A stretch of 60,774 nucleotides of DNA, counting the filler, from Hausera hauseri (lineage: Eukaryota): assembly GCA_046269625.1 (NCBI GenBank). It is 11 parts of 11 records of this genome, joined end to end, with 100 filler letters (N's around TTAATTAATTAA, not from the genome) between each part and the next. Parts side by side here need not be neighbours in the genome. Positions count along the whole stretch, not along the records: positions 18,583 to 24,668 come from JBJURY010142647.1; 10 more parts are not named here. One strand, written 5' to 3'. A program made the position numbers and the translations under genes. The notes beneath the pieces were generated by a model. It saw nothing but the letters and a program-made list of their open reading frames with translations, was not told where the DNA came from and did no database searches. Shown in pieces: positions 9,218 to 54,894 of this stretch; position 1 is the first letter of the stretch; each line of letters starts with the position of its first letter.

Positions 9218-12200
9218 GCATCACGGTGTGACCGACTGTCCGACCGTCTGTCCAATGTCCGTGGGTCCTACGCCACGGTCCGTTACCTTACCACGTCAAC
9301 CACTAGGGCCAACACCGACTATTTCCTTTTTATTCTTCCTAAATAATTGTCATTTTATCACACTCGATACAACGTACTTTATAGACACATATTACTTGCA
9401 CAATTATGTGCTACACTTTGCTAATTTACCTAATATTTACCTCATTTACAACAACCTACCTGTGATTAATGTAAATTTCCGCAATCTTTTTGTTCATTCA
9501 TCCCGTTACGTCATTATTCACATGCACTTTCGTATCCGTGGTGGCATGGATCCTTCGGCCACCATTGACACTACTGACAAAACTAATTCTAAATTATCAC
9601 CTTTCACTTTTCACCAAAAATCAACGACCGTCACCACGCCATCTACTTTCACCACTTATACACCTTCCATTCCGCCATCCAAACACACTTCTCCGTTCAC
9701 AGAATACCTTATTGACCATGAAAAGTCCAGCAAAACCTGGCTTAACTTACAAACTTTGGCTGCAGTCTAACAACATTATTAACCCTTCAGCCAAAGCTTA
9801 AAGATTACTTTACCTCTTACCAAACTGAGTAAAAACTTCTCTTCACGATATTTTAGACATCTTTTAACAATCCGATCCGTACACTCATGTCTATAATGCA
9901 ATTTTGAAACTCACAGAACCGTCTACGGATTCTATAATCTATAGATTCTTCAACGATAACGCTATGGGTACAAAAAAACCATCAGATTTTCTCAGAACCT
10001 TTCTCGCTCATCTTCAAACACTTGGCGTTACAAAACAAAATAATTCCGATCTCTTACGACGTTACTTTTTAAACGCATTGCCGATCCAAATCAGAGCCCT
10101 GCTTACCGTTGTCGAGGAATCGACGGCACTAGATAAGTTAGCCGAACTTGCGGACAAAACGTACGAGATTTTACATTTAAACACAGCCTATCATTTCTGC
10201 AGCGCTTACAGCAAATGACAACACATTAGAATATCAAATTCAACAGTTGTGAGCCGAAAATGCAGCCCTACATAATACAATAAACAATATCAATGATAGA
10301 TTAAATGAAATCTCTTTGTCTCAACAGAAGAGTTCCACCTATGATCGCACATGCTCTGTACCAATAGGTCAGTCACCTTCTCCTGCACTATAGCTGATCT
10401 GTTTCTACCATGATAGGTTTGCTCATAAAGCACGAAAATGTCATTTTGGGTGCCGCTTTTACACCAAAAAGTATCAAGTTAACAACACTATTTGCATCTA
10501 CCACGCAAAATTTAAGAATGAGGCACATAAGTGTATTTTTGGTTGTACCTTTTGAAGCAGCACACAGCATACGAACGTCGGACTTACTGTCTTGTCTTCT
10601 AATAGCCGACCAAGTTTACCACTGACAAAAAGCTAATTCCACCACCAGAGCTTACGGCGAATCCTGGTGAAGGCCATTCATCAGTTTCTACCAGCCGAAA
10701 ACTTTCTTTCGGCGTATTTACCGTAAAGGCAGTAACTACGTTAACAACAACCCGCCACATAGACTTCCTTATAGATTCAGGTGCAGCGATTTCGTTACTG
10801 CCGCTCATCTTCCCAACTTAACACACTTCATCTAAAAATAAGCCTCTATTTACCGCTTCCGGACAACCGCTACAATTTTTGGTGCATGCAGGCTCTTTTT
10901 ACCCTTCCGATATTTCTTTCAGTGTTTCACTGGACGTTTACCGTTGCGAACGTCCAGATAGCCATTTTAGGATCCGACTTTCTTTCGCACTGTAATCTTT
11001 TTGTCGATTGCAAACAACGTTGCTTAACAAGTGGTTGCAATAAGGAGTGATTCGATCACTCCGATACAATTTCGCCTGTTGTACGGGCAAATGCAACTCG
11101 AAATCCTAGTATTAAGAAAACCGTTAAACAAATGTTTTTCTTATAATCATGGTACCTTGTTTTATAAATTACAAAAAAACAATATTTCTGACGATTGGGG
11201 TTTGCACGGCGATGAAAGTGTGGTGATTATCGCCATTTGAACACTTTGACCATAATGGATGCATACCCGCTGCCACTCATTAAGGATATCTTACACCGTC
11301 TCCATTCAACTACCATTTATTCTACCACTGATTTATCCAAAGCCTACCACAAAATTCCTATGGCACTTGAAGATATTGAAAAAATAGCCGTCACTACTCC
11401 TTTTGGCTTTTACGAATATCTGTACGTGCCTTTTGGCCTACGAAATGCTGCACAGACCTTTCAACGCCACATCGATGATATACGTTTTAATTTTCCATAT
11501 GCTCATTCCTATATCGATGACCTATTAATCGTTTCTTCTTAAACCCAACAACACGAAGAACACCTCAGATCAATTTTTTAACTTTTATACCAGCATAACC
11601 TGCAGATTAATTTCGCCAAATATCACTTTTTTCAGAAGCGTGTAAACTTCCTTGGTCACATTATTTCTTCCGAAGGCCACTCACCTCAGCCCGGTCTAGT
11701 TGAAGCGCTAAAATACGTGCAACTACTTCGAACAACAACAGAAATGAGGTGCTTTTGGGGCACTTTTTACTTCGCTCACAAGTATATGTGGTACTGCTCT
11801 GAATTTACCGCACCATTTGCTCATCTCAGTGGTGAAAAAAAACATCAGCCAATACAATGGACCCATGAAATAGTAAACGAATTCGAAAAGCTAAGGAAAG
11901 GTTTACCAACTGCAGAGATATTAGCTTTCCCTAAGCATGATACACAGCTGATCCTCACTACAAACGCCTCCACTACCGCTGTGGGCGCTGCACCTTATCA
12001 AATCTATAAGGGAAAGAACCAGCCTTTGGAGTTTTTTTCATGCAAGTTAACACTTCTTGAAAGTAGGAACTCAACGTTCTATCGAGAATTATTGGCCATC
12101 GTTCTGGCTTTAAAGCACTTCTCCCACCTACTTGTCGCTCGCCATTTTACTTTACAGACCGATTACAAGCCCTTCTTAAACATCATGGCTAGGAAACATT

Positions 12201-13913
12201 TTTCCTCACGCCAAGAACGACAAATATCATATTTTTCGACATTTAGCTTTGACATAAAACATATTAACGGGGTTAATAATTTGGTTGCCGATTTCTTATA
12301 TAGGACGGTTGGTTCGATTAATTTTTAAGTAATCTTTACTCAAGTACAACTTCAACAGAACTAGCCACCTCAGGATATGTTTAATTCTTTTAAGTCTTGC
12401 AATTGTTGACGGCTTGGCTTTAGACACTTCCAAACCAGGTCATTCCGTAATAATTCTCGCACCATCTTTACAACGGCAAGCTTTTAACAATGTACATTCG
12501 CCACACCACCCTGGCTCTAAATACACATTTCGTTTACTCCACCGAAAAATAGTTCGGCCATCAATGCGTTCCGACGTGCAGGCATGGGTTAAGGAGTGTA
12601 TGGCTTGCCAAAAATACAAAACAACTAAGAATTTCAAGCCACCACTGTTCCACGTTCCCTGCACATCACGTTTTAAATCTTTGCATATTGACATTGTTGG
12701 CCCTCTTCCTCCAGACAACGGTCATCAATTCATTCTCACCATGATGGACCGTTCCTCCCGATGGTGAGAAGCCATCCCTCTACGGATCACAAATACCGAC
12801 ACCATATCTGACGTTTTCATTCGTACATGGATTAGCAGGTTTGGATCACCCCGCTTTATTATCACGTACCAGGGTCCACAGTGTGAATCAAACCTGTTCA
12901 AATCCTTTGTCAACCGATTGGGGATCCATCACATACATACTACGCCTTATCAACCCCAATCGAATGGCCTTCTAGAACGTTTCCACCGAAGACTGAAAAC
13001 GTCACTAAGAATCCATACAGAGTCCAACATTAGTTGCACGAATCTTCTTCCATTTGTTCTGCTTGGCTGGCGGAACACTCCGTCTACTTCTACAGAATGC
13101 TCACCCACTGAAGCCTTATTCGGAATTCCTGTACGATCATTATTCGAACTTACTGCCATAGACGACACTCCAGTAGGTGAAACGATACAGACAGCGCAAA
13201 ATAACTTCGTTACAATCAGTAAATATTCGTTATGCAGGTTATTTCACAACCACAAAACATATTTACCTGAAAACTTGTATTCGGCAAAATTCGTCGGGCT
13301 AAAAAATCAAACACCGTGTAATTTTCAACAACGATATTTGGGGCCTTACAAACTCGTCCAATTACACTCCCACAATGCCATTATTTCTAAAGACAGTGAG
13401 GAAATAGCGGTGCATATCAACAACGTAAAACCCGCTTTATTCGTTGACAATAGTTCTCAAATTGAATCTTCTAACCCCTTTTTGACTCCTCCGCCTTTTC
13501 CCTTTTCAGTTCCTACACCTCCTGCATTCCTTTCCATTCCAGCCTCTACAATTGCTCCTTTACCAGAACCTACACCAAACCCCCCGTCTACTAACCTTCC
13601 CACTTTTATTTCTTTTTCTCCTACATTTTCTCCTCCAGCCCATTTTGCGTCTCTGACCGATGCATCACCTTAAGCGACGAAATCTGACATTGTTTTATCT
13701 CAGTTTCTTCTGCAACCAGATACACAGACATTGAATATTCGCAAATCCATCACATTTAGTACATACAGTAAAGAGATTAGCACTGCAGAGGTACAAAGTC
13801 TTATTCACACAAAAACATCCTAGACAGCCTGCATTGTTTCAACATATTTTCTACTTTCTTACCCTCTAGTCTCTTTTGTTCCACGGGAGGGGGGGGGTGA
13901 TGCTGTGCTGTTA
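9218..13913 (+). mobile_element. Ty3/Gypsy element of the Ubl-Gag family, copy 1: Ubl-gag-PR-RT-RH-INT, decayed
   Basis: 5' terminus ...GCATCA ends at 9223. Gag (DPY, KKPSDFL), protease LIDSG (~10770), RT YIDD, RNase H, integrase HPG...C-x2-C, IDIVGPLP, QSNGLLERFHR. PPT at 13885-13897 is followed by TGATGC at 13898. Part of RT appears replaced (about 11030-11240). Confidence 0.9.
9255..9545 (+). CDS. Ubiquitin-like leader fused in frame to Gag (ends IHMHFRIRGG, Gag Met at 9546)
   Basis: The 75 aa from 9321 to 9545 follow a ubiquitin-like pattern (FLFFLNNCHFITLD ~ IFVKTLTGKTITLE; YLIYNN ~ RLIFAG; IHMHFRIRGG ~ LHLVLRLRGG). Confidence 0.65.
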
Positions 13914-15559
13914 NNNNNNNNNNNNNNNNNNNNNNNNNNNNNNNNNNNNNNNNNNNNTTAATTAATTAANNNNNNNNNNNNNNNNNNNNNNNNNNNNNNN
14001 NNNNNNNNNNNNNAAAAACTATATTTTAAATCACAGTCTATCCATTGATTATGAATAGTTTCATTTCCACAGTGTCATATGTATATTAACTCGTAAAAAT
14101 ACGGGCTGAGTTTATTGGTGTGAAACAGAAATAGACATTCAAATGCGATTCGAAGAAATGAGTGATGTTTGACAATTTATTATCATATAACATGTATTTT
14201 TGATTGGATAATTTTATTAGTTTAACGAAAAGTTTCAACCTCAATTACTTCAAAGGAACAGCACCTTTCTTCTACTCATAGTTTTGTTTAGTTTAAAGGT
14301 CTTAAAACATTATCTTTTAGCTTCGCAGGCCTTTAACTTAAGATTTACTTATTCGATAAAGGTTTGGGGTTTCTCCTTCCCACAAACCAAAACATTGTTA
14401 ATTAGTCTGGAAGCAACATGTGGGGCTTGTTTGGTTTATTTAGCCTTATGGTGTGTTTGGTCACGGGAGTGACACCGGCCGAATAACCTTTTATTTATAG
14501 AATTTGAAACAACCGGCTGATACTGGCCGGAATACCTTATTCGAATCCCGAAATTTATAAATTATTAAATATATTATATGTCTTACTTATATAATTAGTA
14601 TAAAAAGAACCGAGAACAATAGAGCTTTAATAAAATATCATAAGGTAACCAAGAAAATAAAGATAAAATTATAATAGTACAATTAACTTACAAATATTGG
14701 CCATAATAATAGGATGAATCATGGAACGTCGGTTCTGATTTTTAGATAAAGTTATTTTATGTTACTAGATTCATACATGTATTGTTCAATCCCCATCTAG
14801 ATAATTCAAGAATTGACAGTTATTTACCGTTAACCTGGTAAGGAGAACAAATTTAATCGTTTTATCTATAGTGTTGGGAGAGCTTTATGAGCACTTACCT
14901 AATCGTACGTCGGTAATGTGTACTTAAGTAGTCTAAGAAGTTAGGTGTTTTACTTGCTAAGGTTTAATATCCTATAATTTTACTTAGGGTATTAATTAAA
15001 TCGCCGCCAGGTAGTGTTAGACCTGAGCGACTAGGATCCACCAATTAATTAGGCTTATTCACTTACTTACTTAATAACGGAAGACAATTTAAAAAGAAAA
15101 ATATATTTCTCTACAATATACAACTTTACTTTTATCAATAAAACTAGTATCGTGCAATTACCGAAAACGTTAACTATTATACAGAACGATTACCAATGAA
15201 TGACATAAAAATATAAGAATGAAATAAAATTCTTACGTGAGTTCATGTTGATAAAAATTTTGTCAAAGAAGCCATCAAATCATTTGGCTTATATATCAAT
15301 TCATATGTCCATAGAAACACAACATAATTGTCCGTTTTTGGACTAAATGTCCAAATTAGGACATTTAAATGAACAGACATGGAGACAAAAAATAAATACA
15401 TTAATCCGTATGGAAGAAAATAAATCCATAACATAAATAACACAACAGAATATAAAAAATCAATAGGAGCAACGTTAGGCAGCAATATTTGCTTGCCTGC
15501 AATCAATTGGAGTAGCTTTACTCCGATTGGATAGTCACATACTGTCACAATAGGCAAAA

Positions 15560-16200
15560 TATTAAAGTAGTAAATGGTAATCGTTTTAGAAAGCTATCAG
15601 TTAAACCAACTTTTAAACATTGTAAATTAATTGAAAATGTAACAGTTCACATGTTGAGAAATTCAATATTTAACAAATTTAATTATGTAGGATTCACAGT
15701 ATTAGAATTAAGTAAATTAATAATGTATAAATTTTTGTATGATGGATCGTATAGTAATTATATAACTGATGATTGTAGGGTATATTTTACAGATACTGAT
15801 TTATGCTTTGTTGAAATGAATGATACCTTAGGGAACATTAAAGAGAATTTGAAAGAATGGGTAGTTCCAAATTTTTTAGGAAAGGTGAAGACTGAATTAT
15901 AAGACGATTACATAACTAAAGCAGTTATCCTAAAAGCAATATGTTATGATTGACACATTGAAAACGAGTGTTCAGAAATGTAAAGGCTTGAACAAGTACA
16001 ATAAATTATTAATTGAAGAATAGAAAAATGTCATTTAATGATCTAACAATTTATAAAAGAAATTATGGATTGATATCCAATCACCATAAAATTTAATTGT
16101 ATGAACAAGAGGAAACTGCTGATAAAAAAGAAGAAACTGATGATAAAACACTATGAATTCTGTAAATAGTATTCCATTTGGATATGTTGAAATATTTTAT
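15560..16200 (+). pseudogene. Heavily decayed pPolB C-terminal fragment
   Basis: YVGFTVLELSKLIMYKFLY, FTDTD, LGKVKTE. Confidence 0.75.
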
Positions 16201-16899
16201 ATTAAAAAGTGAGTGGTGAAATTATTCAAGAATTTTTAAATAACGAAAATAATCTTTTTATTTTAATACAATCAGAAGCATTCAAAATGTTATCAGAAAA
16301 TGATAAACAATTATTTTTAAATAGACATTCTTTTGGAATTCATAGATGTAAAGGAAATAAATGAATATAGTATTATTTATTTTTACATTTTAGAAAAACG
16401 AGATTGATGGATTAAATAAAGTTCGTTAATCTTGCTCTGAAATGAGGACGTATCATAATTACAAATGTACTCAATATTATCTTCATGTTTCGCTAAAACG
16501 AGAATTTCCTTAAATAATAATTGTTTGATATTTCATACCTCTAACTTTGTCGCCTAATTTTGGAATTATTGATTTAACATTTTTCGTTTTCTCATTTACG
16601 TCAAAATTTTCAAGATAAAGGGGTGTATAAAGAGTTGAATATTTATCTTCAATAGCCGGTGTTTTATGTGGATTGTTCTATAATCTCAGTCTGTTTATCA
16701 ATTGATTTCTTAATTAAGTCTACTTTTATTACAGGTTTCTGAAAATGTCGTATCTCTTCTTTTAAAATGTTTTGATTTTTAACTTGCATTACCTGCTTAT
16801 TATATTCATTATAATTTTTAATCACTTAGTAATAATTCTCGAATTTCAATAATTTGGCAAACGAATAAACGAATAATTTGGCAACCGTTGCTTTTCGCT

Positions 16900-18208
16900 G
16901 TCAGCGATGAGTGTTATCTGTGCCGAAAAATACTACCGTTTTATGCACTCTAACGGCTCGTATTGGATCACGACTATTTCATCGGTCGATACTTGGGAGC
17001 AGAATGCAATTTATGCAATTTAGCAAGGCGAGTGCGATCATTCCTGCCGATGATCTTTCATAATTTCCGAGGTTATGACTCACCATGTTCTCAAATGGGC
17101 CATTAACGCCTTTCCGCACTGGAAACTGCATAGTTCCGACTACGATGGAGAAATACCTGTCACTGTCTGCTCATATGAACCGGTTCCAGGTACGCTTCCT
17201 TGATTCATTGCAATTTCTCAATGAATCATAGGCAACGATAGTAAATGCCTTGCCAGATGTGCCGATACCACTCACGCAGTTTGCTGCACATTGCACGCAG
17301 CAAAGGTATATATTGATGACTGCAACATTATATGAGCCACGCCGGACAGCAGGTGAATTACCGCCGTGATGGACAGGTGTTGCAGAAGATGAATATTGGA
17401 GCACAAGAATCTTGGACAGAACTGGGCTGTAGAAACATGTTAGATTACATGCTCCAGTATCTTAAACTGGACGTCTACTTATTAGCCGACGTGTTTCAAG
17501 CATTTCGGACCAAAGCGCTGACGGAATATAGGTTGGCGCCACTCAACTTTTATTCCATACCGGGAATGAGTTTTGCGTCAGCTCTAATGTCACTGGATCG
17601 AGACATTGAGCTGCTGCAAGACCCGGAGATGTACCGGCTGTTTGATGTTGGTATTTGCGGCGGCATGACATTTTTCAAGAATCATCAGGTCAGTGCTACC
17701 GATACCGCATCTCTACTGTATATTGATATTAATAATCTGTACGGCTCGGCGCTTTCGCAACCCTTGCGTACGGTTCATTCGAATGGGTTGTCGACAGACA
17801 AGATCTGGACGACATAATGGTCAATCTACCATGAGTATACATGGCAGGCTCAGTTGGATACCTGATGGAGGTTGATCTCGTGGTACCAGATGAGCTGCAT
17901 GACGTTTTGGACGATTTACCGGTAGCACCATTTAACCAATATCCACCAGGCTCAAAAGTGAAGAAACTGCTCATGACGCTGAACCGAAGCTGAATTACGT
18001 GATCCATTGGCGTCTGCTACAGTTCTACATACAGCTCGGTGTACGCGTCACACAGCTGCATCGCGCAATCCGATTTGCTCAGGCTCCCATATTCAAGGCG
18101 TACATAGATGGAAATTGGAAGGAACGAGCCGCAACTTGTGCAAAGTTTGAAAAGTATTACAAGCTGAAAAACAATTTCCTGTACGGAAAAACTGGAGAAC
18201 CTGAGTAA
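16900..18208 (+). pseudogene. pPolB fragment (exonuclease/palm region), frameshifted
   Basis: YLKLDVYLLADVF, GICGG, YIDINNLYG, YKLKNNFLYGKT. Confidence 0.85.
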
Positions 18209-18582
18209 AGAAGACTGCTCGACAAAGTCGGAGGATCGAAATCTTTGAGTTCATCTGCTTTATTTTCCATCATAATTGAAATAAGTCCAGTTTTTAAAGT
18301 GTTTATTTATCCATTATTTAAACAAATTAAAATAAATAATAACTTGCTTATTATTTATTTTTGCTGCTCCATTACTTTCCCCTCCTTTATGATCCTTGTT
18401 CACTCTTCAACCATTCCACTCTTCTACGAATCATTCTACCATCTTCCATGTTTTTCAACTCCCACTGATGCGGCGAAATTTGNNNNNNNNNNNNNNNNNN
18501 NNNNNNNNNNNNNNNNNNNNNNNNNNTTAATTAATTAANNNNNNNNNNNNNNNNNNNNNNNNNNNNNNNNNNNNNNNNNNNN

Positions 18583-18957
18583 TCAACAGAACAGGCAACA
18601 ACTTTCCTATTGATAGCCTCAAATTCTTTAATTCGATCACTGAATGCAACAATTTCTGTTGGACAGACAAATGTGAAATCCAAAGAATAAAAAAGGAAAC
18701 CAAATAGCCGCCTTTAAAATCCGATAATTTAATATCTTTAAACGTTTTATTTATTACGGCTGTTCCTTCCAAATCTGGTGCTAGTCTTGAAATTTGAGCT
18801 TTTCTAATGTGGAGATTAAGAGTTCCATGAGATTTTAACTCCTTGGCATATACTGTTCCACCAGAAATTTTGCATCTTTCACAAAGTTCACCGGTTACCA
18901 AATACAGAAGAAAAAGCGCGATAACGCTATTCAAGACGTGTATTGTTTTTCCAGGAT
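18583..18957 (-). pseudogene. PRDX4: Peroxiredoxin-4 5' fragment directly after the 3' terminus of Gypsy copy 4
   Basis: Signal peptide plus GGTVY...KAQISRLAPDLEGTAVI...[10 protein letters not shown], then [14 protein letters not shown] after a frameshift. No intron is seen. Confidence 0.88.
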
Positions 18958-21455
18958 TGTGGGACATCTACTGCCGCGGCACCACATAACCCCCGTGGCA
19001 AAGATGGCATTACGTAAAGCAAAAAAGTAAAAAGGGAAAACTGCGAGAAAAAAACAATGTCTGTGATCTTCTCAGTTTTTGTATGAACTAGACTTTGAAT
19101 CTTAACGTTATTTTGTTCCCTGCTATATTTACTGAAGGTAACTGTCTTGCTTGTTTGACGTTCTGTTTAACGGCTTGCTGAAATGGTTGGAGTGAAGTTA
19201 TATCTTGATTTGATATGTGAGCAAGTTGAAAACTGGTCGGTGTATCACTTAGTATTTCTTAATGATTTTCTGCGGATTTTAGGGTAGCAAGTTGAAGTGT
19301 AGATATATTGCAAGAAGAATTGAAGGAGTCAAGAAAGGTTGGTGCAGACTCAGCCGAGGAATCCGGTGTGTCATTAACGAAGAACGTAGGTTTCATGTTC
19401 ATTATGTGCGCGTTTTGTTCTTTGCCGTTTTGGAGTATTGAAATTGTGTGTGAAGTAATGTTGAGAATTTTAAACGGTCCTAAATAGTGCGGTTGAAATC
19501 CAGATGTTGAGGGATGTTTCAACCACACGAACTCTGCTTTAAAGAGTGAGTCACGTAAATATGTTTCGTCGCCGTGTATTATTTTATAGAAAGAGTCTCG
19601 ACTTAGCCGGACGAAATGATCTTGTGCGGACCTAATGGTTCCGTCAGTCGTTGTGTTGTCTTAATTGGTCAGTTCAAAAACTGCACGAATTGTGGTGCCG
19701 AAGAGTGTTTCAGCGGGTGTGCAACCGATGGTGGTAGAAGGCGTGTTGCGCCACTCGAGTAATTTGAATGGAAGAATGGTAGCCCAGTTCGTATGTGTTT
19801 CGGCTAGCATTTTGGGGAGATTTTAAGAGTTCTGTGAAATCGCTCCAATAAGCCGTTCGGCTGGGGATGGTATGGAGTAGTAGGAATATGGTTCATGCCC
19901 AGTCGATTAACTAAGGATTTGAATAGGTTCGATTCAAACTGGAGGCTTTGATCTGTGATAATATATGGCGGTGAACCAAACCGACTAATCCAAACTCTTA
20001 TAAAGGCATCGCCGATGGAGTCAGTGTAGATGGAGCGCAAGGGAACAGCCTCGGGCCAACGAGATGCGCGGTCCATCGTTGTTAAGACGAACTGGTGGCC
20101 ATTATCAGAAGGTAATGGGCCAACAATATCTAGCTGAACTGATTCAAAGCAGGACGTACAGGGGAAATAGAATAATGGTGGCTTAAGATGCTTAGCTACT
20201 TTGAATTTTTGGCAAGCCATACATTGCCTAACCCAACCCTGTACGTCAGATCTCATTGATGGCCATGTGACGTGACGTTTGAGTAGACGGAATGTAGCCT
20301 TCGAAACTGGGTGATGCAAGGAATGAATATGGATGAATGCTGTTTGTTGAAGAGAAGGTGCCAAAATTGGCAAATGGTGCACAGGTGTCGAAGTGTCCAT
20401 GGCTACGCCATCAATAATTTGGACAGATTTATATTGTTTAAGTATTTCAGTAGAAGGAGGATTCTAAACCAATTGTTCTTTAGAAAAAATAGGCATGACG
20501 CTAATTGCACTAACCGATAGTGACAAAAAATCCGCTATTAAATTATCGGTGCCAGAAATGTGGCAGATTTTAAAGTTGAACGTTGACAAGTACGAAATAT
20601 GACGTTCTTGTCGAAATGATGGATGCTTCATGTTCATTACGTGAACGAGGGGCTTGTAGTCTGTTTGAATGGTGAAAGACTGGGCGATAAGTAAATGTGA
20701 AAAATGTTTTAATGGCTAAAACGATGGCCAGGAGTTCCCTATCGAAGATGGAATAAGGGCAGTCTTGTGACTGGAGCTTACGTGAAAAGAATTCTAGTGG
20801 TTCATTTATTCCTTGAGATATTTGATGGAGAACCGCTCCGACGGCTGTGGTTGACGCGTCGGTTGTCAGGATGAGATCGGCACCAGGTTTTAAATTAGCC
20901 AAGATTTCAACGGTTTTAAGATTATTGCGGAGCTCATCAAACTGGTTTAAAGGTTCTGGCGTCAAATATAAAGGTTTCGTCTTTGGTCTTGCTCCTAGTT
21001 GAGGGAAAGGAGCAGTTAACTGGCCGCAGTGTGGGACATACTTATGAACGAAATGCAAAGCTCAGAGAAAGCTGCGCATATCAGTTGTAGTTTTTGGCAA
21101 TTCGATATTTCGTAATTAGTGAATTCTATCAGGCTGTGGACTGTGACCGTCAGGCGTGATGATGTGGCCTAGGAAGTTGACTTTCTTTTGAAAGAATGTA
21201 CATTTTGCGAAGTTAACCTGTAAGTTCTTGTTGTGCCGGCGTTAAAAAACAAGTTTGAGGTGTTCAGCGTGTTGCTTAGGTGAAGATGATGCTACCAGTA
21301 TATCGTCGATATATGTGTAAGCGAATGGTAGGCCTGAAAGGATAAAATCGATATGCCGTTGAAAGGTTTGGGCTGCGTTCTTTAAGCCAAACTGCATGAA
21401 GGCGTATTCGAAGAGGCCAAATGGTGTTATTATCGCCGTTTTTGGATGTCTTCAG

Positions 21456-22499
21456 TGTGGTTGGCTGACATGTTTACCTTTTGTTGTGAATAGGTCTGAT
21501 CTGGGTTTACGATAATTGTTATACCACTGAGGGAATGCTTTGGTGACATTGATCCATTGCCGCTTTTCGGTGCACCTGATGAGGATATGTAACAATGATC
21601 AACGCCAAAATTCGGATCATCGCACGGTTTAACACCGATCATGAGATTACCGTTCAAAATACGTCCGTTACGCGATTGAGCAAAGACGGCGTGCATTCGA
21701 ACTTCAAATTGAAAATGCATCCAGTTGCCACTGTTGGGTATATATTTCTTCTGAATAACACCAATTTCCGAAAGGTATGATAGAATTAATTGGGATTCGG
21801 TTGATGAATAATTAAAAACTGTCACTCAGTTTTCCATAGTTTTATTTTCGTCTTCTGCCTTTGCATTAAAACGTTTATGACTATTGTAAAAATGACTTCG
21901 TTTTGAACTATTCAATATTGCCGGATACCGTGATAAAACGACTGAAGAATTGTCATTTTGGATCATTTTGCATGTCGGGGATTTATTCCAATTACTGGCA
22001 ATAGGTGGACCATTTCTTCGTCGACTGTGATGGAATGATTCTTGACGTGTGATATCTCTAGATTGACGAGTGTCCATTTGCCTTGTATTCAATGTACTAT
22101 TTGACAATTTTGATTGGTTTAATACGGATTCATTAGCAGATGATAGATTCATTGCTAATAAAAAATTTGGGGAAACGCCCTGCTGTGAATTGGAATTGCA
22201 ATCAACCAAACTGTCATCAAGTGGGGAAAATACATTCTTTCTCATTGTGCGCTCAGAAATTTGAAATCAGCAAATTCGGCAACTAATTACAAAAAAATCC
22301 GACAATCAATTATAAATTTTTTTTGATAATTATAGCACAAAGTACAAAAGTTTACATCACCTCCAAAGTCCGCTAAAAAGGAATAAATTCAACTACTTTC
22401 GAAATTCACAATTTATATTTTTTCCATATTTTAAACAAAATCCATTTACATAACGAGATCCACTTGCAGATCACCAATTGGGTGAATATAGGCACCACA
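21456..22499 (-). mobile_element. Solo-LTR-like unit TGTGGT...ACCACA with 5-bp TSD, carrying NUP35 sequence
   Basis: Splits RT cleanly (VAP|EDIQKTAIITPFG). Flanks are ttcag (21451-55) and tttag (22500-04). It starts with the same TGTGGTGCC as the post-PPT terminus at 18986. Confidence 0.85.
21470..22245 (-). pseudogene. NUP35: NUP35/Nup53 5' fragment (RRM), intron-less, with a premature stop
   Basis: (W>stop)VTVF...GNWMHFQF...NGRILNGNLMIGVKPCDD matches the Nup35 RRM WVTVFGF...GNWMHIRY...DGRIFGESIMIGVKPCID. Confidence 0.88.
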
Positions 22500-24768
22500 T
22501 TTAGGCGCTACTGGTATTTGGTGGTAGGCTTTTTCTAGGTCTAGAGTGGAGTATATTGTAGTTTTATGCAACGAATGTAAGATGTCTTTTATCAAAGGTA
22601 AAGGGTAAGCATCCATGATAGTAACATTTTTAAGTTGACGATAATCGCCGCATAGTTGGAATGTTCCATCTTTTTTGGGTACCACGTTAAGTGGTGAAGC
22701 CCAAGGTGACTTTGAACGGTGGATTATTCCTGCTTGTTGAAGTGACGTGAATTCAGATTGAACTGCTTGTCGGCGGCTTGGTGATAGTGGCCTGAGTTTT
22801 TGCCTGATTGGACGAGGATTCTCGGTGATGATGTGATGGAATGTCGAGCTCGTTGGTCTAAAAGTTGGATCCTTTGTGATCGTGTGGGAGCAGGACTTAG
22901 TTATGTATTGCTGGATTTCTTGACTTAAGGAGGCAAATGGCGTGGTTAGTAAATTAGATGGTTGATCAATGTCAGAACTGGATATGATGGATATTAAACT
23001 GTCTAAATCGTCTTTGTCAACGTTTTCTACTTTGCTACCATTCGATGGAAATATAAAATTATCAAAATCAGTAGTGCTGAAATACATATTCGCATCTAAA
23101 TTAGGTAACGATGTTTTTAATATGGGCCTGACAAACAAGGCAGGCTGCGCAACCGATGGAGAGTTATCTGTATACGTTGAATTTTCTTGACTGTTTGTAA
23201 CTAATCTACTGTGTATACAGTCTACTACGAGGTTGTAGAAAGATAAAAAATCGGAGCCAAGTATTGGTGACTGTGTGTCGGCTACGGTGAAGGTCTAGAT
23301 AAAAACGTCAGAAAAAGGCTGTAACATGAACGAGATTTTGGACGTGCTGCACACACGTAATGCTTGGCCATTGGTTGTATATAATTTCTTGGCTGACGGG
23401 GAAAGAGTTTTAACTTTGGTAGACGAAGGCAGAAGAGACACTGCTGCTCCAGAGTCGATTAAAAAATTAATCGATTGAGTGGGCTTAATTGTTATTAAAG
23501 TGTTTAGAGTAAATACGGTATAAGTACATCTGTTACGGTAGAGATATTTGCCTATGCCAACATGAGCCGAAACATCTGGCAGCTTTATCCGTTTTTTGGA
23601 GGTACAGGATTTAAGTTGTTGGAAACAGTAGGCTGTGGGAAATTGGAACGGCTGACGAAGGTGCAACCGGCAATGAAGTTGCGCGCTTTGGTGTTAAATT
23701 TATTATGATATATACAGACGATGTCACGTCGTCTGAAACTAGGCGCATAAAACCTACATCCTAAACAGAATTTATTAATATTATTTTTGAATTTGGTGTG
23801 ATAGTAACACACTATCGGTCGCGCAAGCGACATAGTAGGTCTAAAATTTTGAGACGAAGTACGGCTATAGCCCGCATCAAAACAATTCCGTCTCGGCATT
23901 GTCAGGGCATCTATTTTTGACGTGAGTAATGAGATTGTCTGATATATATTGGCGTTTTCGGTACGTAAAAATTTATTTGCTTGTTCAAATGTGATATTTC
24001 GTTAATCTGTTGTGTCATTGAAGTTTGTAGCGTAGCGGCGACTTATGGCGGTGATTGTGAATGTAATATTTCGTGACTTTTATCAGCTAATTGTGCCAGC
24101 TTTTGCAGTGTCTCTGTATCCTCGACTATTGTTAGGAGTGCACGAATGTCTCTCGGTAGAGACTGCAGAAAGTATCTGCGCAGTAAATCAGCGTTATTCG
24201 CCTGGTTGACACCCAAAGTGCGCAACTAAGTTAATGCGGTCTGAAGGAATTCGGAAGGTTTTAAGTTTTCTATAGTGTTATCATTAAAGTATTTGTAAAT
24301 AATATTGTCCAAAGACAGCTCCATGAATTTTAGGACTGAATTAAAGAGGGAACTATGTTAGGATCTCTTAATTACCAAAAATCTGAATTAAAAAAATCAA
24401 AAAATCGATCAGAATTCCAGTGACCTTTTTGAATTTGAAACCTTTGAGAGAAATAATGATTTTCCCAATCAACAAAAATGCCAAAAAGTAAAAATCGAAA
24501 ACGAGCATGAAGACCAAGAATCCAGCTAAACAAATTCAAAAACCGCATTAAAAAATAACAATCCAAACCGAAAAAGTTCAAAAAAACAAGCCAAAAAGCC
24601 ACAGAACAAAATTCAAAAAAAACTGTATAGGTCGCTGCTTTGAAATACTTCTGACAAGTTGGAAAGTTNNNNNNNNNNNNNNNNNNNNNNNNNNNNNNNN
24701 NNNNNNNNNNNNTTAATTAATTAANNNNNNNNNNNNNNNNNNNNNNNNNNNNNNNNNNNNNNNNNNNN

Positions 24769-25460
24769 CAATTGGGTATAAGGGTCAGAGTGTTGAAAGA
24801 TGTCCAGTAAGTTATGGATTGAGGCCTTTATAGAGTTTGGTAGAAGATAAAGTAGGCTATGGGCTTTGGATAAGGAGTCTGTGATACCGTTGGATTGTAA
24901 CCAGAGTTGATAAAAGTGGAGCCACGGTTTGCTGGACTTTTCATTATCTATAAAGTAGTCAGTACAATGTGGAGAAGTATTAATAGGATTTTTGTTTGAA
25001 GAATTTGCGTCGATTGAAGTAGGTGGATGATTTGGTCTGGTGTAGTAGAGCATGGGTATTGCCTTTTTTGTGGTGGTCGCCAATTTTGGTGTCAATGGTT
25101 GGCGAAGTGTTCATGCCACCACGGATACGGAGATGTATGTTGAAGCAAGTGTGATTTGAAAAAAAAGGTAAAGTTTCGTTGAGATGTATGATAGTACCGT
25201 GATGGCTAAGGTAAAAGTCGGAAGAACCAAGCAAGGAAGAAATGCAGGTCTGAAAGGTGAGAATGTGTGGATGTTTTGTATTGAGGGTGTAGATACTGTT
25301 GAAAAAAACAAAAATGAAAGTGGGTGCAGTGGTGCGCCTGGGGGCGTGATGTGGGGCCGACTCCGAAGCGCCATCCGACCGACCGCAGCAGGGTTGGCGG
25401 TCGGAACCTCCGCCTCGACGAAGCAGGCAGCAAAATGTGGGATAGCCGAGTTTTCCCACA
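24769..25460 (-). mobile_element. Ubl-Gag Gypsy copy 2, 5' end: 25-bp TGTGGGA...TCCCACA terminus (25436-25460), Ubl (25374-25115) and start of Gag
   Basis: FNIHLRIRGG|MNTSPTIDT, then KPWLHFYQLWLQSNGI...SDPY homologous to copy 1. One frameshift lies in a T-run. Confidence 0.85.
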
Positions 25461-26455
25461 AAGGTGCCGTCATTGCTGCTCGGCATTTCTGAATCGCCAT
25501 CATGACATCTCTAGGCTTAAGTGCATCGCGATAGTTCATAACAATCGATATGAATTTTTCTTTATTTAAGTCGGTTTTAGTTGTTTGGTTACCTTTCAAG
25601 GAGACACCCGTTGTGATTTGTTCGACCAATGAACTGACATACTTAAATCGTGTTTCGTTCAGAATTGGAGAATCTCGCATTGTTGCATGGTGTATGCTTG
25701 GGTACGGTATTGAATTTGTATGTATTTCTTTCAAACCAGAATTCATCGTTGTTTTAAATCGCGCTGACGCTGTAGGTGAGCTAATCATTAGAGATATTAT
25801 TCGATTGAGGTTAGAATAATATGGTGAATTCCTGAACAATAGATATTTACAAACGTCATAAAAGCATTATTAAAAATTATACACAAATCACACGTATCTT
25901 GTGTTGTGACTATGAAATACGCTATTGTTTGGTTCAACGATTGCCGTAGGCATTATCGACCTGGGGAATAATGCCAATTGTATTTGGTTTATTTTGGGAT
26001 AATAAACGGCTAATTGCTGCATTATCAACGTACCAACTCTAGACCCCGTATCGCCATCCATACTGTTAATGACGATAAATGCATGCGAATTATTCGTTTT
26101 TTCAGCTAACTTATATAGCCGCGGTGGGAATAGTCTTAGTAATCGTACACCAGAATTGAGACTTCGTCGAGCAAAACTGTTACCGGAATCTTTACAGTCA
26201 GTAATCATTGATTCTCTACTAGAAATATTTCGACATGCACCAGTCTTAAAATTATTTATGCATGTGGGCTCTGAATCGCTGAATATAGCCCTTGGATTCA
26301 ACTTACAGTGGTTTACTGATTTGGATAATACTGTCGTTCGGTCAAGTTCGCTAGTCAAATCATTATCTTTTAATGTTTTTAGTCCATCTAAATCAGTGGT
26401 GTGTTCAAGACACAATAATTTCCACAGTGCACTGGTGCACTGCACACCAAAATGG
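25461..26455 (-). pseudogene. Divergent alpha-tubulin, intron-less, 3'-truncated and frameshifted
   Basis: GVQ...LWKLLCLEH, PRAIFSDSEPT, TAIVEPNNS, YSNLNRII...TASARF, NYR...PRDV are collinear with alpha-tubulin. Confidence 0.88.
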
Positions 26456-26489
26456 CAGCAGTTGTGTATCCTTCGGTCACCAATTTCAC

Positions 26490-26680
26490 AGACACCAGAC
26501 TGCTTAGCATTAGTTAATACATCTTCAGATGTGTGCAGGAGATTTTCCATTTGTTTCACGGTGAATTATCAAACAGCAGGAACTCGGATATCAACATCAA
26601 GAAGCTGTGCGGCAATTAATTCAATATTCTTGATACCCTCGATTCGAGTCGATTCAATCAATACAGTAACATACCATTTC
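26490..26680 (-). pseudogene. AP3D1: AP-3 complex delta subunit internal fragment
   Basis: WYVTVLIESTRIEG...LIAAQLLDVDIRV...VKQM...GVCEI matches AP3D1 WYISILVELTRLEG...LIAAQMLDVAIRV...VSQM...GICEV. Confidence 0.8.
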
Positions 26681-30130: not shown

Positions 30131-30276
30131 TGTAGAAGCACTAGTCTGAGATTTCGGTTCAAGGAAATTTTTAAAGCGAAAGGTCAAGCCCGCTTATGAG
30201 CTCGACGCGGCGGCAGCGGACGTCCGGCTGTGCACGACCAAATGGGCCTAAGGGCACAGGCCGCTGAGACACCACA
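30131..30276 (-). mobile_element. LTR 5'-terminus module (TGTGGTGTC plus GC-rich head) inserted in pPolB
   Basis: Minus strand TGTGGTGTCTCAGCGGCCTGTGCCCTTAGGCCCATTTGGTC matches the heads at 33075(+) and 35846(-). A possible end CTACA lies at 30131. Confidence 0.75.
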
Positions 30277-32815: not shown

Positions 32816-32904
32816 CTTCGTGTATAAAATATATAATTCCATAAAAACTTACTTCATATAAACATCCAACCACAATTACTGGTACTGTTTATGCAATAAT
32901 TAAT

Positions 32905-33074
32905 CCATCTTTTCAAATTTGTATTTCACTATGGAAAACTCCATATAGATATATTGTAACGGCATTGTTCAATGCCCTGTGGAATCGTAAATCCAATTTC
33001 AAATTGCCTGTTCGTGGCATTTGTGGTTGATCAACATCAAAATCCGCTGCCAAAACAAATGTAAAGAAGGGGTA
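32905..33074 (-). pseudogene. Maverick major capsid protein C-terminus, cut by the LTR-type insertion at 33075
   Basis: YPFFTFVLAADFDV...GNLKLDLRFHRAL...YGVF parallels the capsid C-terminus at about 52460-52660. Confidence 0.7.
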
Positions 33075-33160
33075 TGTGGTGCCTACAGCGGCCGGTGCCC
33101 TTTGGCCAGTTTGGTCCCTTTCCGACGCGTCGGGCCCACAGGCGGGCCCCCGATCTTCCG
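33075..33160 (+). mobile_element. LTR 5'-terminus module (TGTGGTGCC plus GC-rich head)
   Basis: About 42 bp near-identical to the inverted copy at 35805-35846 and to 30236-30276. Confidence 0.78.
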
Positions 33161-33229
33161 AATTGAGGATTCAAGAAAAGAAAACGAAACAGACAAAATC
33201 AAACGATAACCCCGGTGAATATCGCTCCA

Positions 33230-33932
33230 TTGAAACAATTATCCAATCATTGGAATTCGTAATCGTCGTGATAATCATTATGGATATATTTCAGTCATAT
33301 TTGTACGGTTTTCGAAAAAATGTCTGCACCTTTGTTAGACATGGGTTGTTGCTGGTATATTGTATAAGCGTCATTGTCAGTATTTACTATCCAGAAATAG
33401 TTTACATTTTAGGAGCTAGACAATTTATTCGACCGAATTTTGCATTGTTTCGTTCGACGTCGATGACAAAACTTTTAATTTCGATGTGCATAACTACCAA
33501 AGACATTCTAAGTGCATTTTTCTTGTTAGCTCTTGGATGATCGGATTTACCATTCGTGGAGTGTCGTTGTTTTTTAGTATGGAAACGTACACTGATGTAC
33601 AATACAATAATTTCTACGATGCGTTCTTCACATTACTGGTACTTCTAACAGCCAACAATCATGATGCAATGGTCGTTGTGTATAACAACAGTCGACTGTA
33701 TTTCATCTTCTTTCTGGTCTACGCATCCATTGGGATGTTTGTGTTCACGAACGTTTTCACTGCGGATATGTTGGTACTACGACGTATTGCGACTAGAGCA
33801 GTTTACGAAGTATTGAAAACTACATCAAAGGATATTGATGAGGATAGCGTGGAATCGGACATACCGCGACGAACTATAACGGATGTACCGATTGCTGGCT
33901 GGCGTAAGACGGCAACACTTGCTTCAGTGTAA
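33230..33932 (+). pseudogene. Two-pore channel (TPC2-like) domain-I fragment, intron-less
   Basis: RQFIRP...; FFTLLVLLTANNHDAM...YNNSRLYFIFFLVYASIGMF ~ TPC pore LLVLLTTANNPDVMIPAY. Confidence 0.8.
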
Positions 33933-34076
33933 ATATTAATTTTGTACTTGTTAACAAAAAAGGGTTGAAAGATCTTTTAAAATAAAAGCCATTCTTTTCT
34001 CAATTACTTAAAATAAAAATTCAACAGTGAAAATACACGAATTATTTTACATCAAGTCAGGAAATCGTTGGTGAAA

Positions 34077-35846
34077 TGTGGTTCCGAACTACACGCAACA
34101 AAGGCTCAAATATAAGGTGAAAACATTTCCAAAGACGGAAATAGAAAGCCTAGGTTTATAGAACGTAAACAACAATCAATCAGATGCATAAAATAAAATT
34201 TCATTTGAAGTGTTCGTATTCCATAAAAATTAGTGGCTATACTTATACGTTCTTTGCCAGTGTTTCTTGTTGACGTACATTATCAGTAACGCCAATTTTC
34301 CAAACATCTATTTCGTTTGGATTCGTCTCTACAGCCACATTCTCATCATTTTTTGACAAATTACCTAATAGGTTCAACACAGCCCGGTTTTTGACACAGG
34401 ACGAATCGACTTATCCAATTGAGCCAATGCATCCGTCAATATTCTTTTTGATTTAAATACTTTCTTTTATTGAAAAACAGCCTGTTGTTCTCTGAGTCAC
34501 ATTATGGAAACTGTGATTTTAATCTGAAGTTAAAAATATGCGAGTTGATGAATTGGACAAAGACAGTGATGATGATTGGAAAGACTGACGACTAGATGTA
34601 ATAGGCGAATATGAAATGCTGAAGGAATTACCATCTGGTTTTTTGAATATAACGATTCAGTTGATATTTTCGGATCGTCCGTCATTTTGGTGGACTCGTT
34701 TCTTTTGACATTTCAACAGAACATTTTCGGACAAATCTGTTTCGTTGTTTGACAAACTCAGTGCATCAACGGATGAAACGGAATGCGTTAAAGCCGGTGG
34801 TTTGTCGTAAAGAGTATTATCTTTGGATTCATCGGAATGTTCGGGTGATATGAAATTGATCAGATCGCTGTTGGAAATCACATCGAAATCGGTACAGATG
34901 ATGAGTCTTTTTACTCTCACCGATTTCCTTTTCTAGTATTGGCGCTGGTGTGTCATTTATTTCGGATAGGTCCGAGTAACCCGAACTATGAGTACTGTCG
35001 TCATCGATTTTGCATGTTTATTTCAACAAGCGGCCCGATGACCTCTCAGTGCCATCACTACAATGCACCTCGCCACTGAAGCCTCTCTCCGAATAGAATT
35101 TGTTTCGATTTTATGGGATTCAATGTCGAGTATCTTTATTTTGCTGAATCACAACTTGACTTAATTTTCTTATTCGGTCGACGTCTCTTTCGTTTTAATG
35201 GAGTGGGTTTTATGGATTCACTTTTTTAGTACTGTACTTTCATCCTATAACGTAGATAAATCCGATTTGGGATTTGGATTCGGCAAAATTTGTCGCTGAT
35301 GACTGACAAATGGTGTTGGGATTGTTGTCAATGAAGGTAGTGACTGGGATAAGATATACCCTGGTGAACTAATATTCATGCTCGGTGATGTTGTCGTGAC
35401 ATTGGACAATGATGATTTGGGCTTTGCTTGGATAGGCTTTAAACTGCTCATAGACATATTCCATATTTTTGTACTGGTGCATGTCGTTGTTGGTCTTTTG
35501 ATAGATATGGGAGCGTTGTGAAAACAAGTTACTTAACGAGTTAATTGACGAAGAATTGACTGGTGATGTGTTTACAGTACTGCATGACAAAATGGCAATT
35601 GAAGTCGTTGCCGCCGGAAGAATCGGAGTTACTGGAGATATGTTTGATGAACGAATCGTTCGACTTGATCCACTTGTTGGCGAAGCGATTGCTGAAATCT
35701 ACTTTTCATTGTTAAAACTACTGCATTGAGTTACGGCAACTTTCGACGGGAGTCAAACCCCAGTATTGATCCGACGCGAAGGTAACGGAAGCCCGGCAGC
35801 GCTTGACCAAATAAGCCAAAGGGTACCGGCCGCCGTGGGCACCACA
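34077..35846 (-). mobile_element. LTR-like unit TGTGGTGCC...GGAACCACA filled with unidentified Ser-rich host-like coding fragments
   Basis: Family head at 35846 and terminus at 34077, with sense-strand ORF remnants between. No matching TSD was found. Confidence 0.55.
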
Positions 35847-36339
35847 TCAGGGTACTTTACTTTGAATTCATCTATAGTGATGCCATTATTTATATTTTTA
35901 TTCACAAGGCCTGTGTTTAGTATTATGGACCGATAATATGCCTCAGTAAAGTCATTTGCTCCAAAGTCTACTCTATATCTATCCCTATAATCAATTCCTT
36001 GACATAGGGTTAGGGAACTAATATTGCAGTAATCAAATGCTGGACAGTATGAGGTATATTCACCACTGACTTTACTACTCTATGTGCAATACACAACCCT
36101 CAGAACTGATATAATGTCATGAAGAGCTATTATGGATACAAATTCAATAAGGTCCTTTATTATATTTGCCCAGGATATGAGGCTGTATGTGATGGAGTAT
36201 AAATGCAGTTTTACGAAGATCATATTGCCAATTTGACAGATTTCAAGTAAAAGAGAAGGAAGATCACCTTTAATGTGCAGTATCCTGCTTCGGCAGCACA
36301 GCCAGTTGTACAGACTGCTTTGACAACAAGGCCCGATTC

Positions 36340-36752: not shown

Positions 36753-36774
36753 TGTAGTTCCGACTTGTATTTGC

Positions 36775-45530: not shown

Positions 45531-46710
45531 TCTACCAACAACTGCACATTTACATATATGCGAAGGAATTTCGGGCATTATTTGGACAAATATTTTATCC
45601 TTTAAAGTAAACTGAACCGAAATGATTTCATTGTTTATGAACAAATTCAAATGGGGAGCAATACCATCGGGTGAGGCGAAACCTATTCGACCAATGGTAA
45701 TTGCGGTGTTCTTGTGGAAGGTTTTGGGTGTCGAATTGTTTATAACGGTCCGTTTGTCCTTTCTCTTTAACCTCATAAAAATGGTCTTATCTGCTAGTAG
45801 TGATATTGCCGTTCCTTTGAAACAACAAGATACAAAATACGGTATAACTTTCATCGTATCTTCCACCACCTTCTGGACTCTTTCAGAAAACAGATTAGGG
45901 TCTTGTGCTTTACTATCCCTGTTATCATCATGATCAGTACTTTCGACTGGTAGATCACCGTATAATTTGACAAATATCAGCAAACACAATTCTTCAACTT
46001 CGATCGAAAACTGATACTTCTTATCGTGGTTCTTTGTAATCTGATCATTAGCAACAGCAGCAGTCATACGCACTTGATTAACCACAGACAGTACGTACTC
46101 GTACACGTGACGAATGGGCATATATTTTCGGTAAAGAATCAGCAGACCGTGTAAAATAGTCGACGCTCTCGGAATTGAAATTAAATGTTCTTGCAGTTCC
46201 GATGAAGTTTCTGCTGCCTCTTTGGCGGAAACGAAATGAAAAATAAGTTCCACGCCGATTTCAGCGTCAATAACAATAGGTGCAGCTCGTTCCAATAAGC
46301 ATTTCGGCGTTTGTATGATACTTTTCTTTTTAGTAGCATCAAAGTTCAATTTCACCAGATGACCAGAAATGGTCTTTTTGACCTTAGAAATTATTTTGAC
46401 CACCACCAGTCGGCTGGAATTTGAATCGACAAATGTATCCAATTGGGATAGAAGTTTTTGGTCGCTACGCAATAGTCCAAAAAATTTCGTCAGATTATTG
46501 AGTTTATCTTTGTTGGGCAAAAATTCTGATATGCGTTTGGCTTTTTCTCGCAGTTTAATACTGAGTGCGTTGGGTAGTGCTTTCTCTGATGAAGATGCCT
46601 CCTTCAATAATTGGACCGTTTCACGCAGTAAATTGATTATTATGACTTGGTTTTTGAACATATAATGAATAGTTTTAGCACTCTAAATATTCGATGTAAT
46701 ATCGCTGCGT
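45531..46710 (-). pseudogene. PDS5: PDS5 cohesin-regulator internal fragment, intron-less
   Basis: LRSDQKLLSQL, KCLLERAAPIVIDAE and IGRIGFASPD ~ PDS5 LGDDEKLRSQL, KFLLERIAPVHIDSE and LGHISMLAPD. Confidence 0.82.
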
Positions 46711-52427: not shown

Positions 52428-52459
52428 AAGAAGAAGAAAAGGTGAGACATTGGATATTA

Positions 52460-53694: not shown

Positions 53695-53714
53695 TTTTCT
53701 GTTTTACCACAAAT

Positions 53715-54790: not shown

Positions 54791-54894
54791 TGATCTCGAA
54801 GATGACGATAATGATGATGATAGTAATGATGCAGTTTGTTTATTATCGATGACGACGACGAAGAAAATGTAGCATCAAATGTGTCTTCGCTCCA

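Follow-up and report, generated by a model that had tools for sequence, protein, structure and literature searches.

The 60,774-nt stretch of Hausera hauseri DNA analysed here (the window; assembly GCA_046269625.1) holds decayed copies of a CsRn1-like Ty3/Gypsy retrotransposon family. We favour, with a probability of about 0.5, the reading that the long terminal repeats (LTRs) of this family are stubs of 20-35 bp and that host mRNA is captured by error-prone strand transfer. The type of the element, a TG start behind its polypurine tract (PPT), a left end conserved at real junctions, 5-bp target duplications and mosaic host fragments oriented like the element are all present in the window. No single copy with matching repeats at its two ends was found, and overall the stub LTRs are likely rather than proven.

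The make-up of the window matters for every other finding. It consists of 11 contigs of 4.2-8.0 kb joined via 100-nt linkers. Positions 4239-4338 and nine further 100-nt blocks up to 56334 are these artificial linkers (N44-TTAATTAATTAA-N44), and a repeat of about 105 nt that was seen 10 times was rejected as a biological repeat since it is the linker.

Copies of the Gypsy family

Contigs 3, 5, 6 and 9 carry decayed copies of one Ty3/Gypsy family with 65-76% DNA likeness in the longest alignments. The decay is light (stops at 6 of 917 and 7 of 1175 aligned codons), and no further family copies were found in the bacterial/archaeal sequence collection. Contigs 2, 4, 7 and 10 hold Polinton-like DNA with polB matches, and contig 8 an intact Gypsy unrelated to the CsRn1-like family. 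The main parts of the family copies are:

9546..13820, plus strand: gag with two CHCC motifs and pol of contig 3, both decayed, from homology mapping and translation
19074..24357, minus strand: decayed CsRn1-like gag-pol copy of contig 5 with its 5' end missing, from homology mapping
25114..25435, minus strand: non-coding leader to the gag ATG, a GC-rich and then a C/T-rich part, homologous in contigs 3 and 9

The closest relatives of the family integrase are the proteins P0003, P0004 and P0029 (70-78%); of the named relatives, spider proteins reach 39-55% and tapeworm proteins 39-45%. Upon translation the Gag of contig 3 shows two CX2HX9CX3C (CHCC) motifs, the signature of the CsRn1 clade, and in the contig-5 Gag the second Cys is replaced by F in both repeats. 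Pol has the order protease, reverse transcriptase (RT), RNase H, integrase (PR-RT-RH-IN) with a GPY/F motif, as seen from Pfam matches, mapping to P0003/P0004 and the motifs YLGPY and YLGPF in the translations. In a tree of the 19 of 51 matches with at least 550 residues covered, in which the window copies and any named CsRn1 reference are absent, P0003/P0004/P0005 are sister (99/98) to a group of 12 rows including the DUF7041-bearing Araneus protein P0011; the contig-6 gag itself matches DUF7041 weakly (E=0.14). Because the target duplications are 5 bp long and the tree holds no named CsRn1 reference, the family is termed CsRn1-like Ty3/Gypsy and not a CsRn1 member.

The start of the LTR behind the polypurine tract

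Both autonomous 3' ends, on contigs 3 and 5, have a PPT before the 3' unit. The TG at 18986 on contig 5 is a true post-PPT start: its distance from the end of pol is 88 nt (81-84 nt in the contig-3 copy), and its 3' region aligns with that of contig 3. The features at these ends, including a putative primer binding site (PBS), are:

18958..18986, minus strand: candidate 29-bp 3' LTR of the contig-5 copy, TG start verified, CA end uncertain
18987..18998, minus strand: PPT region of the family, CCACGGGGG plus a 3-nt spacer, aligning with the contig-3 PPT
18584..18967, minus strand: peroxiredoxin-4 (Prx4)-like host fragment with its first Met within the candidate LTR
13885..13913, plus strand: contig-3 PPT (13885-13897) and first 16 nt of the 3' LTR, cut at the contig end
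9201..9223, plus strand: candidate remnant of the contig-3 5' LTR, ending in GCATCA and lacking a TG start, with GCTGTT in common with the 3' start
9224..9235, plus strand: PBS-like site, 9/12 identical to the published CsRn1 Trp-PBS

The contig-5 start has 9 nt in common with the junction-verified left ends described below. Its CCACA end at 18958 is not significant alone, as CCACA occurs within 60 nt of 860 of 17060 random starts (5%). The last 10 nt of the 29-mer open the Prx4-like reading frame, whose sole early Met precedes a hydrophobic leader, and homology to host coding sequence sets in again no more than about 60 nt from the TG (P0002 aligns from 18925; the nearest Prx4 match is 54% identical).

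On contig 3, the 3' start (13898-13913) matches 9218-9223 over 6 bp in inverted orientation and shares a 6-mer at 9201, a combination that 10 of 2354 windows pass. The 9/12 Trp-PBS match follows directly after the 5' candidate, which is the case for 18 of 8096 CA sites. Judged by these motifs, the two ends are a possible pair, with an LTR of about 32 bp if the overlap is right.

A conserved left end with a primer-site-like motif

The word TGTGGTGCC represents the conserved left end of the family. It occurs five times in the window, four times at verified ends: at 18986 behind the PPT and at 22499, 33075 and 35846; the fifth lies antisense in the integrase, and 30276 carries a variant. The longer word TGTGGTG[CT]C..GCGGC has four occurrences, all at ends. 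Interrupted homology (to RT, polB or a Polinton-like gene that we take to encode a capsid protein) fixes the left ends at 22499, 33075, 35846 and 30276, and two of the insertions are complete:

21456..22499, minus strand: complete 1044-bp insertion in RT, ends TGTGGT...ACCACA, with a Nup35 fragment inside
22479..22499, minus strand: 21-bp TG..CA left unit, then AT and TGGTGA (22476-22471)
22500..22504, minus strand: target duplication, left copy, 4/5 identical to the right copy
21451..21455, minus strand: target duplication, right copy
33075..35849, no strand assigned: complete 2775-bp insertion in the Polinton-like capsid gene, its ends inverted copies of the family left-end unit
33070..33074, plus strand: 5-bp target duplication GGGTA, left copy, exact
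35850..35854, plus strand: 5-bp target duplication GGGTA, right copy, exact
33075..33108, plus strand: 34-bp TG..CA unit, then GTT and TGGTC
35812..35849, minus strand: 35-bp unit preceded by TGA, then TT and TGGTC
30243..30276, minus strand: 34-bp unit, then TT and TGGTC; it abuts Polinton-like polB, and a thioredoxin-like fragment (30140-29664) follows

In all four junction-verified left ends a CA or TA is reached at 21, 34, 35 and 34 nt, respectively, and TGGT follows within 3 nt. By criteria chosen after the data were seen, the same arrangement is found at 1297 of 23566 random starts (5.5%) and at 19 of 235 TGTRG starts, the four ends included; the TGGTGA behind the 22499 unit has a background of 113 in 23566 (0.5%). 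Because the three units on contig 7 are homologues, the four left ends amount to two independent observations.

A GC-rich stretch of 80-100 nt follows the putative primer site in six ends and could be an internal promoter. The contig-3 3' end, the three gag leaders and the three contig-7 units contain neither AATAAA/ATTAAA nor a TATA word, and the first AATAAA of contig 5, at 18755, lies inside the Prx4 fragment. No conserved RNA structure was found at the ends (z-scores -1.6 to +0.8 in 8/8 folds). ARAGORN and Rfam gave no matches in the window, which contains no tRNA gene.

Complete insertions and the meaning of their inverted ends

Both complete insertions are flanked by 5-bp target duplications. 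They are non-coding and were put in the family by their end sequence. For 33075-35849 the homologue of the capsid-like gene on contig 10 spans the insertion site, and no integrase match was obtained in its scanned reading frames. At the right end of 21456-22499 the family PPT was not found (purine-rich at 12/15, longest G-run 2). About 230 nt of AT-rich DNA lie in this insertion ahead of the Nup35 coding part and could be the gene's own 5' region.

The original prediction had proposed LTRs reduced to integrase attachment sites, and its check was to find complete elements with identical mini-LTRs at both ends plus target duplications. Short ends with a conserved attachment-like word are indeed present, TGTGGTGCC being the example, but the paired repeats are missing in both duplication-flanked insertions.

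The ends are inverted instead of direct: 36 of 42 positions are identical between the arms at 33075 and 35846 (0/500 shuffles), and the ends at 22499 and 21456 match over 6 bp. This raises the alternative that the cargo carriers have no functional LTR and are inverted-end elements. The enzyme moving them, the Gypsy integrase or a Ginger-like transposase, would require no more than TGTGG...CCACA, and their likeness to the post-PPT start would be due to shared integrase specificity or to descent. A proposal deriving the terminal inverted repeats (TIRs) of Ginger1 from two opposed LTRs (PMC2836005) fits such elements. We consider this unlikely, as no Ginger-type transposase was identified in the window, the ends bear primer-site-like motifs, positions 35849-35847 retain the TGA spacer that separates PPT from TG in contig 3, and an RNA step is suggested by the named cargo, which is co-oriented and apparently free of introns. 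For stub LTRs, the joining of two left ends in 33075-35849 has two possible explanations, the paired integration of two cDNAs and an integrase-driven movement of an inverted pair.

Evidence against stub LTRs and the case for longer ones

A number of results weigh against LTRs of 20-35 bp. Paired direct repeats were found neither in 21456-22499, where 75, 98 and 161 of 500 shuffles reach the observed scores, nor in 33075-35849 (225 and 340 of 500). Because the copies are only lightly decayed, a true pair should be visible (about 90% identical by our own estimate). However, as both insertions are non-coding cargo carriers, their missing pairs do not settle the matter for intact autonomous copies. 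The 5' candidate of contig 3 lacks the first 9 nt of the 3' start. From the Trp-PBS pattern TGGTGA(G/C)CCCG(T/A) the first 6 nt are found at 22476 and only 7/12 positions in contigs 6 and 9; it is not enriched window-wide (48 versus 53.9 expected), and the primer-site motifs vary among copies (TGGTGA, TGGTC, CGGTG, TGCTG, TGCAG). On contig 5 the CCACA at 18958 may, given the open frame, represent Prx4 codons. On contig 6 the string 25436-25460 discussed below occupies the expected site of the tubulin peptide VDWCPTGF, and one of its frames reads FVGKLGYPTF. Finally, a second common motif, GTCGG..CCACA, lies further in (33129-33140, 25361-25350) and offers a longer LTR.

This second motif leads to the alternative of an ordinary LTR, short at about 65-130 bp, that comprises the whole GC-rich unit from TGTGG to GTCGG(G)CCC(C)ACA or GCACCA. 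The inner CA ends would then be chance or cargo, and a switch to Prx4 mRNA would have truncated the 3' LTR of contig 5 about 15 nt from its start. With 33075-33140 there is a 66-bp TGTGG..CCACA unit, homology among the three contig-7 units extends over about 100 nt, GTCGGCCC(C/T)AC and CAGGCGCACCA are common to contigs 6 and 9, the Prx4 Met lies inside the 29-mer, and LTRs of 85 bp have been published (PMC3281118). However, no TGG follows directly after the inner motif in contigs 3, 6 and 9 or at 33140, and the left end at 22499 has no GC-rich unit at all and still shows CA, AT and TGGTGA. The likeness of the contig-7 units to the gag leaders reaches z 2.3-2.4 for contig 3 and is not significant for contigs 6 and 9. 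On balance such LTRs are possible but doubtful; the family would then be an ordinary short-LTR CsRn1-like one with unusually heavy retrocopy cargo.

The four short strings as a set

Four TG..CA strings had been put forward as mini-LTRs at element boundaries, and all four are present: 18958-18986, 25436-25460 and 45475-45530 read on the minus strand and 34077-34093 on the plus strand. Besides the contig-5 string they are:

25436..25460, minus strand: candidate 25-bp 5' LTR with 7-bp perfect inverted ends, contig 6
45475..45530, minus strand: 56-bp TG..CA unit of contig 9, uncertain; it may instead be read as an inner 21-bp unit that ends at 45510
34077..34093, plus strand: 17-bp near-palindrome inside the 33075-35849 insertion, no element end

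As boundaries they fared unequally: the start at 18986 stands and 25436-25460 is credible, 45475-45530 is uncertain, and 34077-34093 fails since it lies inside a larger insertion. Because they sit on four different contigs (5, 6, 9 and 7 for 18958, 25436, 45475 and 34077), no two of them are the ends of one element. Only the string starting at 18986 comes after a PPT, and a flanking duplication of 4-6 bp was found at none of them. A TG/CA partner with a 5-bp duplication was found neither for 18958, 25460 or 45530 nor for 34077 taken as left end; for 34093 as right end the search gave a single one-mismatch partner, at 31976 in Polinton-like DNA.

The pattern TGT[AG]G...C[CT]ACA of 12-60 nt occurs 13 times in the window against 6.2±2.8 in local shuffles (2/60 shuffles reach 13), and with perfect 5-bp inverted ends 7 times against 3.3±1.7 (3/60); 8 of the 13 lie away from any family end. 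The excess is mild, and therefore position must decide on each string.

Of 23 TG..CA stretches with 7-bp perfect inverted ends, 25436-25460 is the only one to begin with TGTGG, and in most matches the alpha-tubulin homology stops at about 25480-25462, where the string begins. From these data it is a credible element end. Because of its overlap with the expected VDWCPTGF and the FVGKLGYPTF frame, it may also be part cargo or a product of microhomology.

The inverted ends of 45475-45530 measure only 5 bp. Transportin-1 homology is firm to about 45630, the 100 nt before 45530 have no assignment to any gene, and PDS5 and Transportin-1 fragments lie upstream. An assignment of the 56-mer itself to Transportin-1 was considered and is doubtful: the representative search gave 5 matches, and the match to P0054 comes from a tandem-repeat protein. 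The inner 21-bp parse at 45530 resembles the contig-6 unit (4/400 shuffles, in 28 tests, uncorrected). The claim that the interiors are unrelated to one another holds for five of the six pairs, 25460 versus 45530 being the possible exception.

The palindrome at 34077-34093 has mismatched ends (TGTGG/CTACA), is placed between two apparently convergent coding stretches, and the family PPT was not found around it. It was considered as 3' LTR of an element starting at 33075 and rejected, because it has neither a target duplication nor a family PPT and the other end of that element is 35849.

Host-gene cargo

Ten named host fragments adjoin family ends: LRR-like (weak, E=0.015), Prx4, Nup35, alpha-tubulin, PDS5, Transportin-1, PHD, UCH, two-pore channel and thioredoxin-like, the last assigned from an Atlas lead (0.93). 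All ten lie on the element strand, which for the 7 independent junctions corresponds to a probability of about 0.008 by our own arithmetic. Left out of this count were the weak methyltransferase match at 27117-27485 (E=0.23) and the Tudor fragments of SETDB1 histone-methyltransferase type at 36734-37208 (minus strand), which lie beside Polinton-like DNA and have no recognisable family end at their junction. The cargo genes mark the host as an animal. Three cargo stretches are:

25462..26565, minus strand: divergent alpha-tubulin fragment abutting the TG
45630..46682, minus strand: mosaic cargo in one open frame, PDS5 (46682-45795) and then Transportin-1 (45779-45630)
33202..33932, plus strand: two-pore-channel-like host fragment, with search evidence for 33420-33929

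The cargo at 25462-26565 and 45795-46682 (both minus strand) is far from known homologues (PDS5 34%, tubulin divergent) and keeps long open frames; the explanation is either divergence of the parent genes or continued selection on the cargo.

Contig 5 has cargo immediately behind the PPT start; in contigs 3, 6 and 9 the cargo immediately precedes the leader, and contig 3 stops 16 nt past its PPT. These positions would also suit long LTRs filled with host sequence, in which cargo was captured in U3/R/U5, nothing but the attachment ends can still be recognised and the short contigs end within the repeats. However, the contig-3 3' start matches neither the contig start nor the upstream cargo beyond 6 nt, and from the left ends at true junctions it is at most 35 nt to a primer-site-like motif, which makes long LTRs the least probable of the alternatives and very unlikely.

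How stub LTRs could work

A stub LTR would consist of an attachment word (TGTGGTGCC or a variant), a variable filler and a CA end, followed by a TGGT-type primer site. Plus-strand priming at the PPT would still yield a proper left end, stub plus primer site, on every product. With so little repeated sequence the first strand transfer would often land on host or read-through RNA via microhomology, and the right end would then be a few attachment bases or any CCACA/CATCA that the integrase can use. Unreliable transfer and borrowed right ends would thus explain the unrelated stub interiors, the unpaired ends and the heavy mRNA capture.

Signals for the start and stop of transcription would have to lie outside the stubs, in flanking host DNA or in the GC-rich leader. 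The original prediction had concluded from the short ends that the element depends on host transcription. The absence of polyA and TATA words fits this without showing it, as an internal promoter might reside in the GC-rich leader. An animal Gypsy lineage with promoter- and polyA-less stubs of 20-35 bp, transcribed from flanking host genes, would routinely yield integrated cDNAs that have a single proper end or a pair of inverted left ends, serve as gene-shuffling vehicles and resemble the proposed LTR-to-Ginger intermediate; this more far-reaching picture we regard as tentative and rather doubtful.

The leader was also considered as a ubiquitin-like sequence (…RIRGG-M) fused to Gag, meaning translation from host genes. 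This was rejected, with no Pfam match and a best relevant PDB match of E=0.61. Between contigs 6 and 9 the leader mismatches are distributed 10/6/8 over the codon positions (2 synonymous, 14 non-synonymous), compared to 21/10/42 in gag. Open frames through the leader have a shuffle probability of 0.02 in contig 3 and 0.10 in contig 6, and 2 stops interrupt the frame in contig 9. The leader is not evolving like coding sequence. It carries an 18-nt word ending in the gag ATG that is invariant in three divergent copies, at 9531-9548 (plus strand), 25112-25129 and 45191-45208 (both minus strand), and that is possibly a translation or packaging signal. On the antisense strand of the leaders, at 25317-25361 and 45398-45441 (both plus strand), purine-rich tracts are followed by TGGTGCGCC, and a G-rich tract is followed by TGTGG. 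This pattern, mirroring a PPT and LTR start, may be due to composition or may hint at unusual priming.

Comparison with known systems

Stubs of 20-35 bp, if true, would show how little repeat reverse transcription needs and tie short repeats to host-gene capture. Programs for finding LTRs usually apply length thresholds, and such stubs would fall below them. The LTR of Bombyx Mag is 77 bp, a value that our literature search did not confirm. In the literature searched, with most subscription journals outside its scope, no LTR below 85 bp was found (85 bp in PMC3281118), and the available text of PMC3286476 gives no LTR lengths.

With the CsRn1 clade (CsRn1, PwRn1, AgCR; PMC2582038) the family shares the CX2HX9CX3C Gag, the PR-RT-RH-IN order, GPY/F, the PPT before TG and, in two of its ends, what may be a TGGTGA-like primer site. 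In contrast, the LTRs of PwRn1 measure 381 bp, and the clade has 4-bp target duplications and LTR pairs more than 97% identical (PMC2582038), fish CsRN1 LTRs being 174-302 bp long (PMC11117352); the units in the window are 21-35 bp, with 5-bp duplications and no pair.

LTR-mediated retrocopies (Tan et al., 2016; PMC5131818) likewise join partial and multi-gene host fragments to LTR-element sequence, for which template switching at short microsimilarity was proposed. There the cargo replaces internal reading frames and both LTRs are expected, whereas in the window cargo also lies outside the gag-pol copies and the complete insertions have no second LTR. The SMART element FRetro129 (PMC3281118) and the ta-TRIMs (PMC4558846) are small and non-autonomous with very short terminal repeats and TGT..ACA ends, and FRetro129 also has a 5-bp target duplication. 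However, FRetro129 has identical 85-bp direct repeats and the ta-TRIMs two LTRs, PBS and PPT, while the units in the window measure less than half of these 85 bp and are unpaired.

Ginger1 and Ginger2 (PMC2836005) have TGTNR ends and inverted repeats of at least 40 bp, as in 33075-35849; the range for Ginger TIRs, 40-270 bp with TGTNR ends, includes the 33075/35846 arms but not the 6 bp of 21456-22499. In contrast to the window family, Ginger elements encode a transposase without RT, and their duplications are mostly 4 bp (5 bp in TDD-4/5; PMC2836005). The insertion 33075-35849 holds host cargo, and its ends match the post-PPT start of an RT-bearing element. Flanked by target duplications and bearing two inverted LTR-start units, it gives a real example of the arrangement from which the Ginger1 TIRs were proposed to have arisen (PMC2836005).

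Other elements in the window

In the unrelated Gypsy of contig 8 (38446-43183, plus strand, 29% GC) the frames for gag, protease and pol look intact, and its contig contains no LTR pair. Decayed Polinton-like fragments (polB, capsid-like) lie at 4339-7093, 14014-18482, 30277-33074, 35850-36500 and 48537-56234; in contig 2 another polB-like piece lies on the opposite strand, and positions 7920-8198 encode a RING domain. Inverted repeats of 184 bp (86%; 57001-57184 and 59500-59683) flank a 2.3-kb stretch that is probably a DNA transposon, and near it a TBP-like domain lies at 60191-60592 (minus strand). At 1878-3944 (minus strand) a 689-aa open frame without Pfam match has a signal-peptide-like start, a Cys-rich part and 3.6 tandem 76-aa repeats rich in Pro, Gly and Lys, with KR sites before them.

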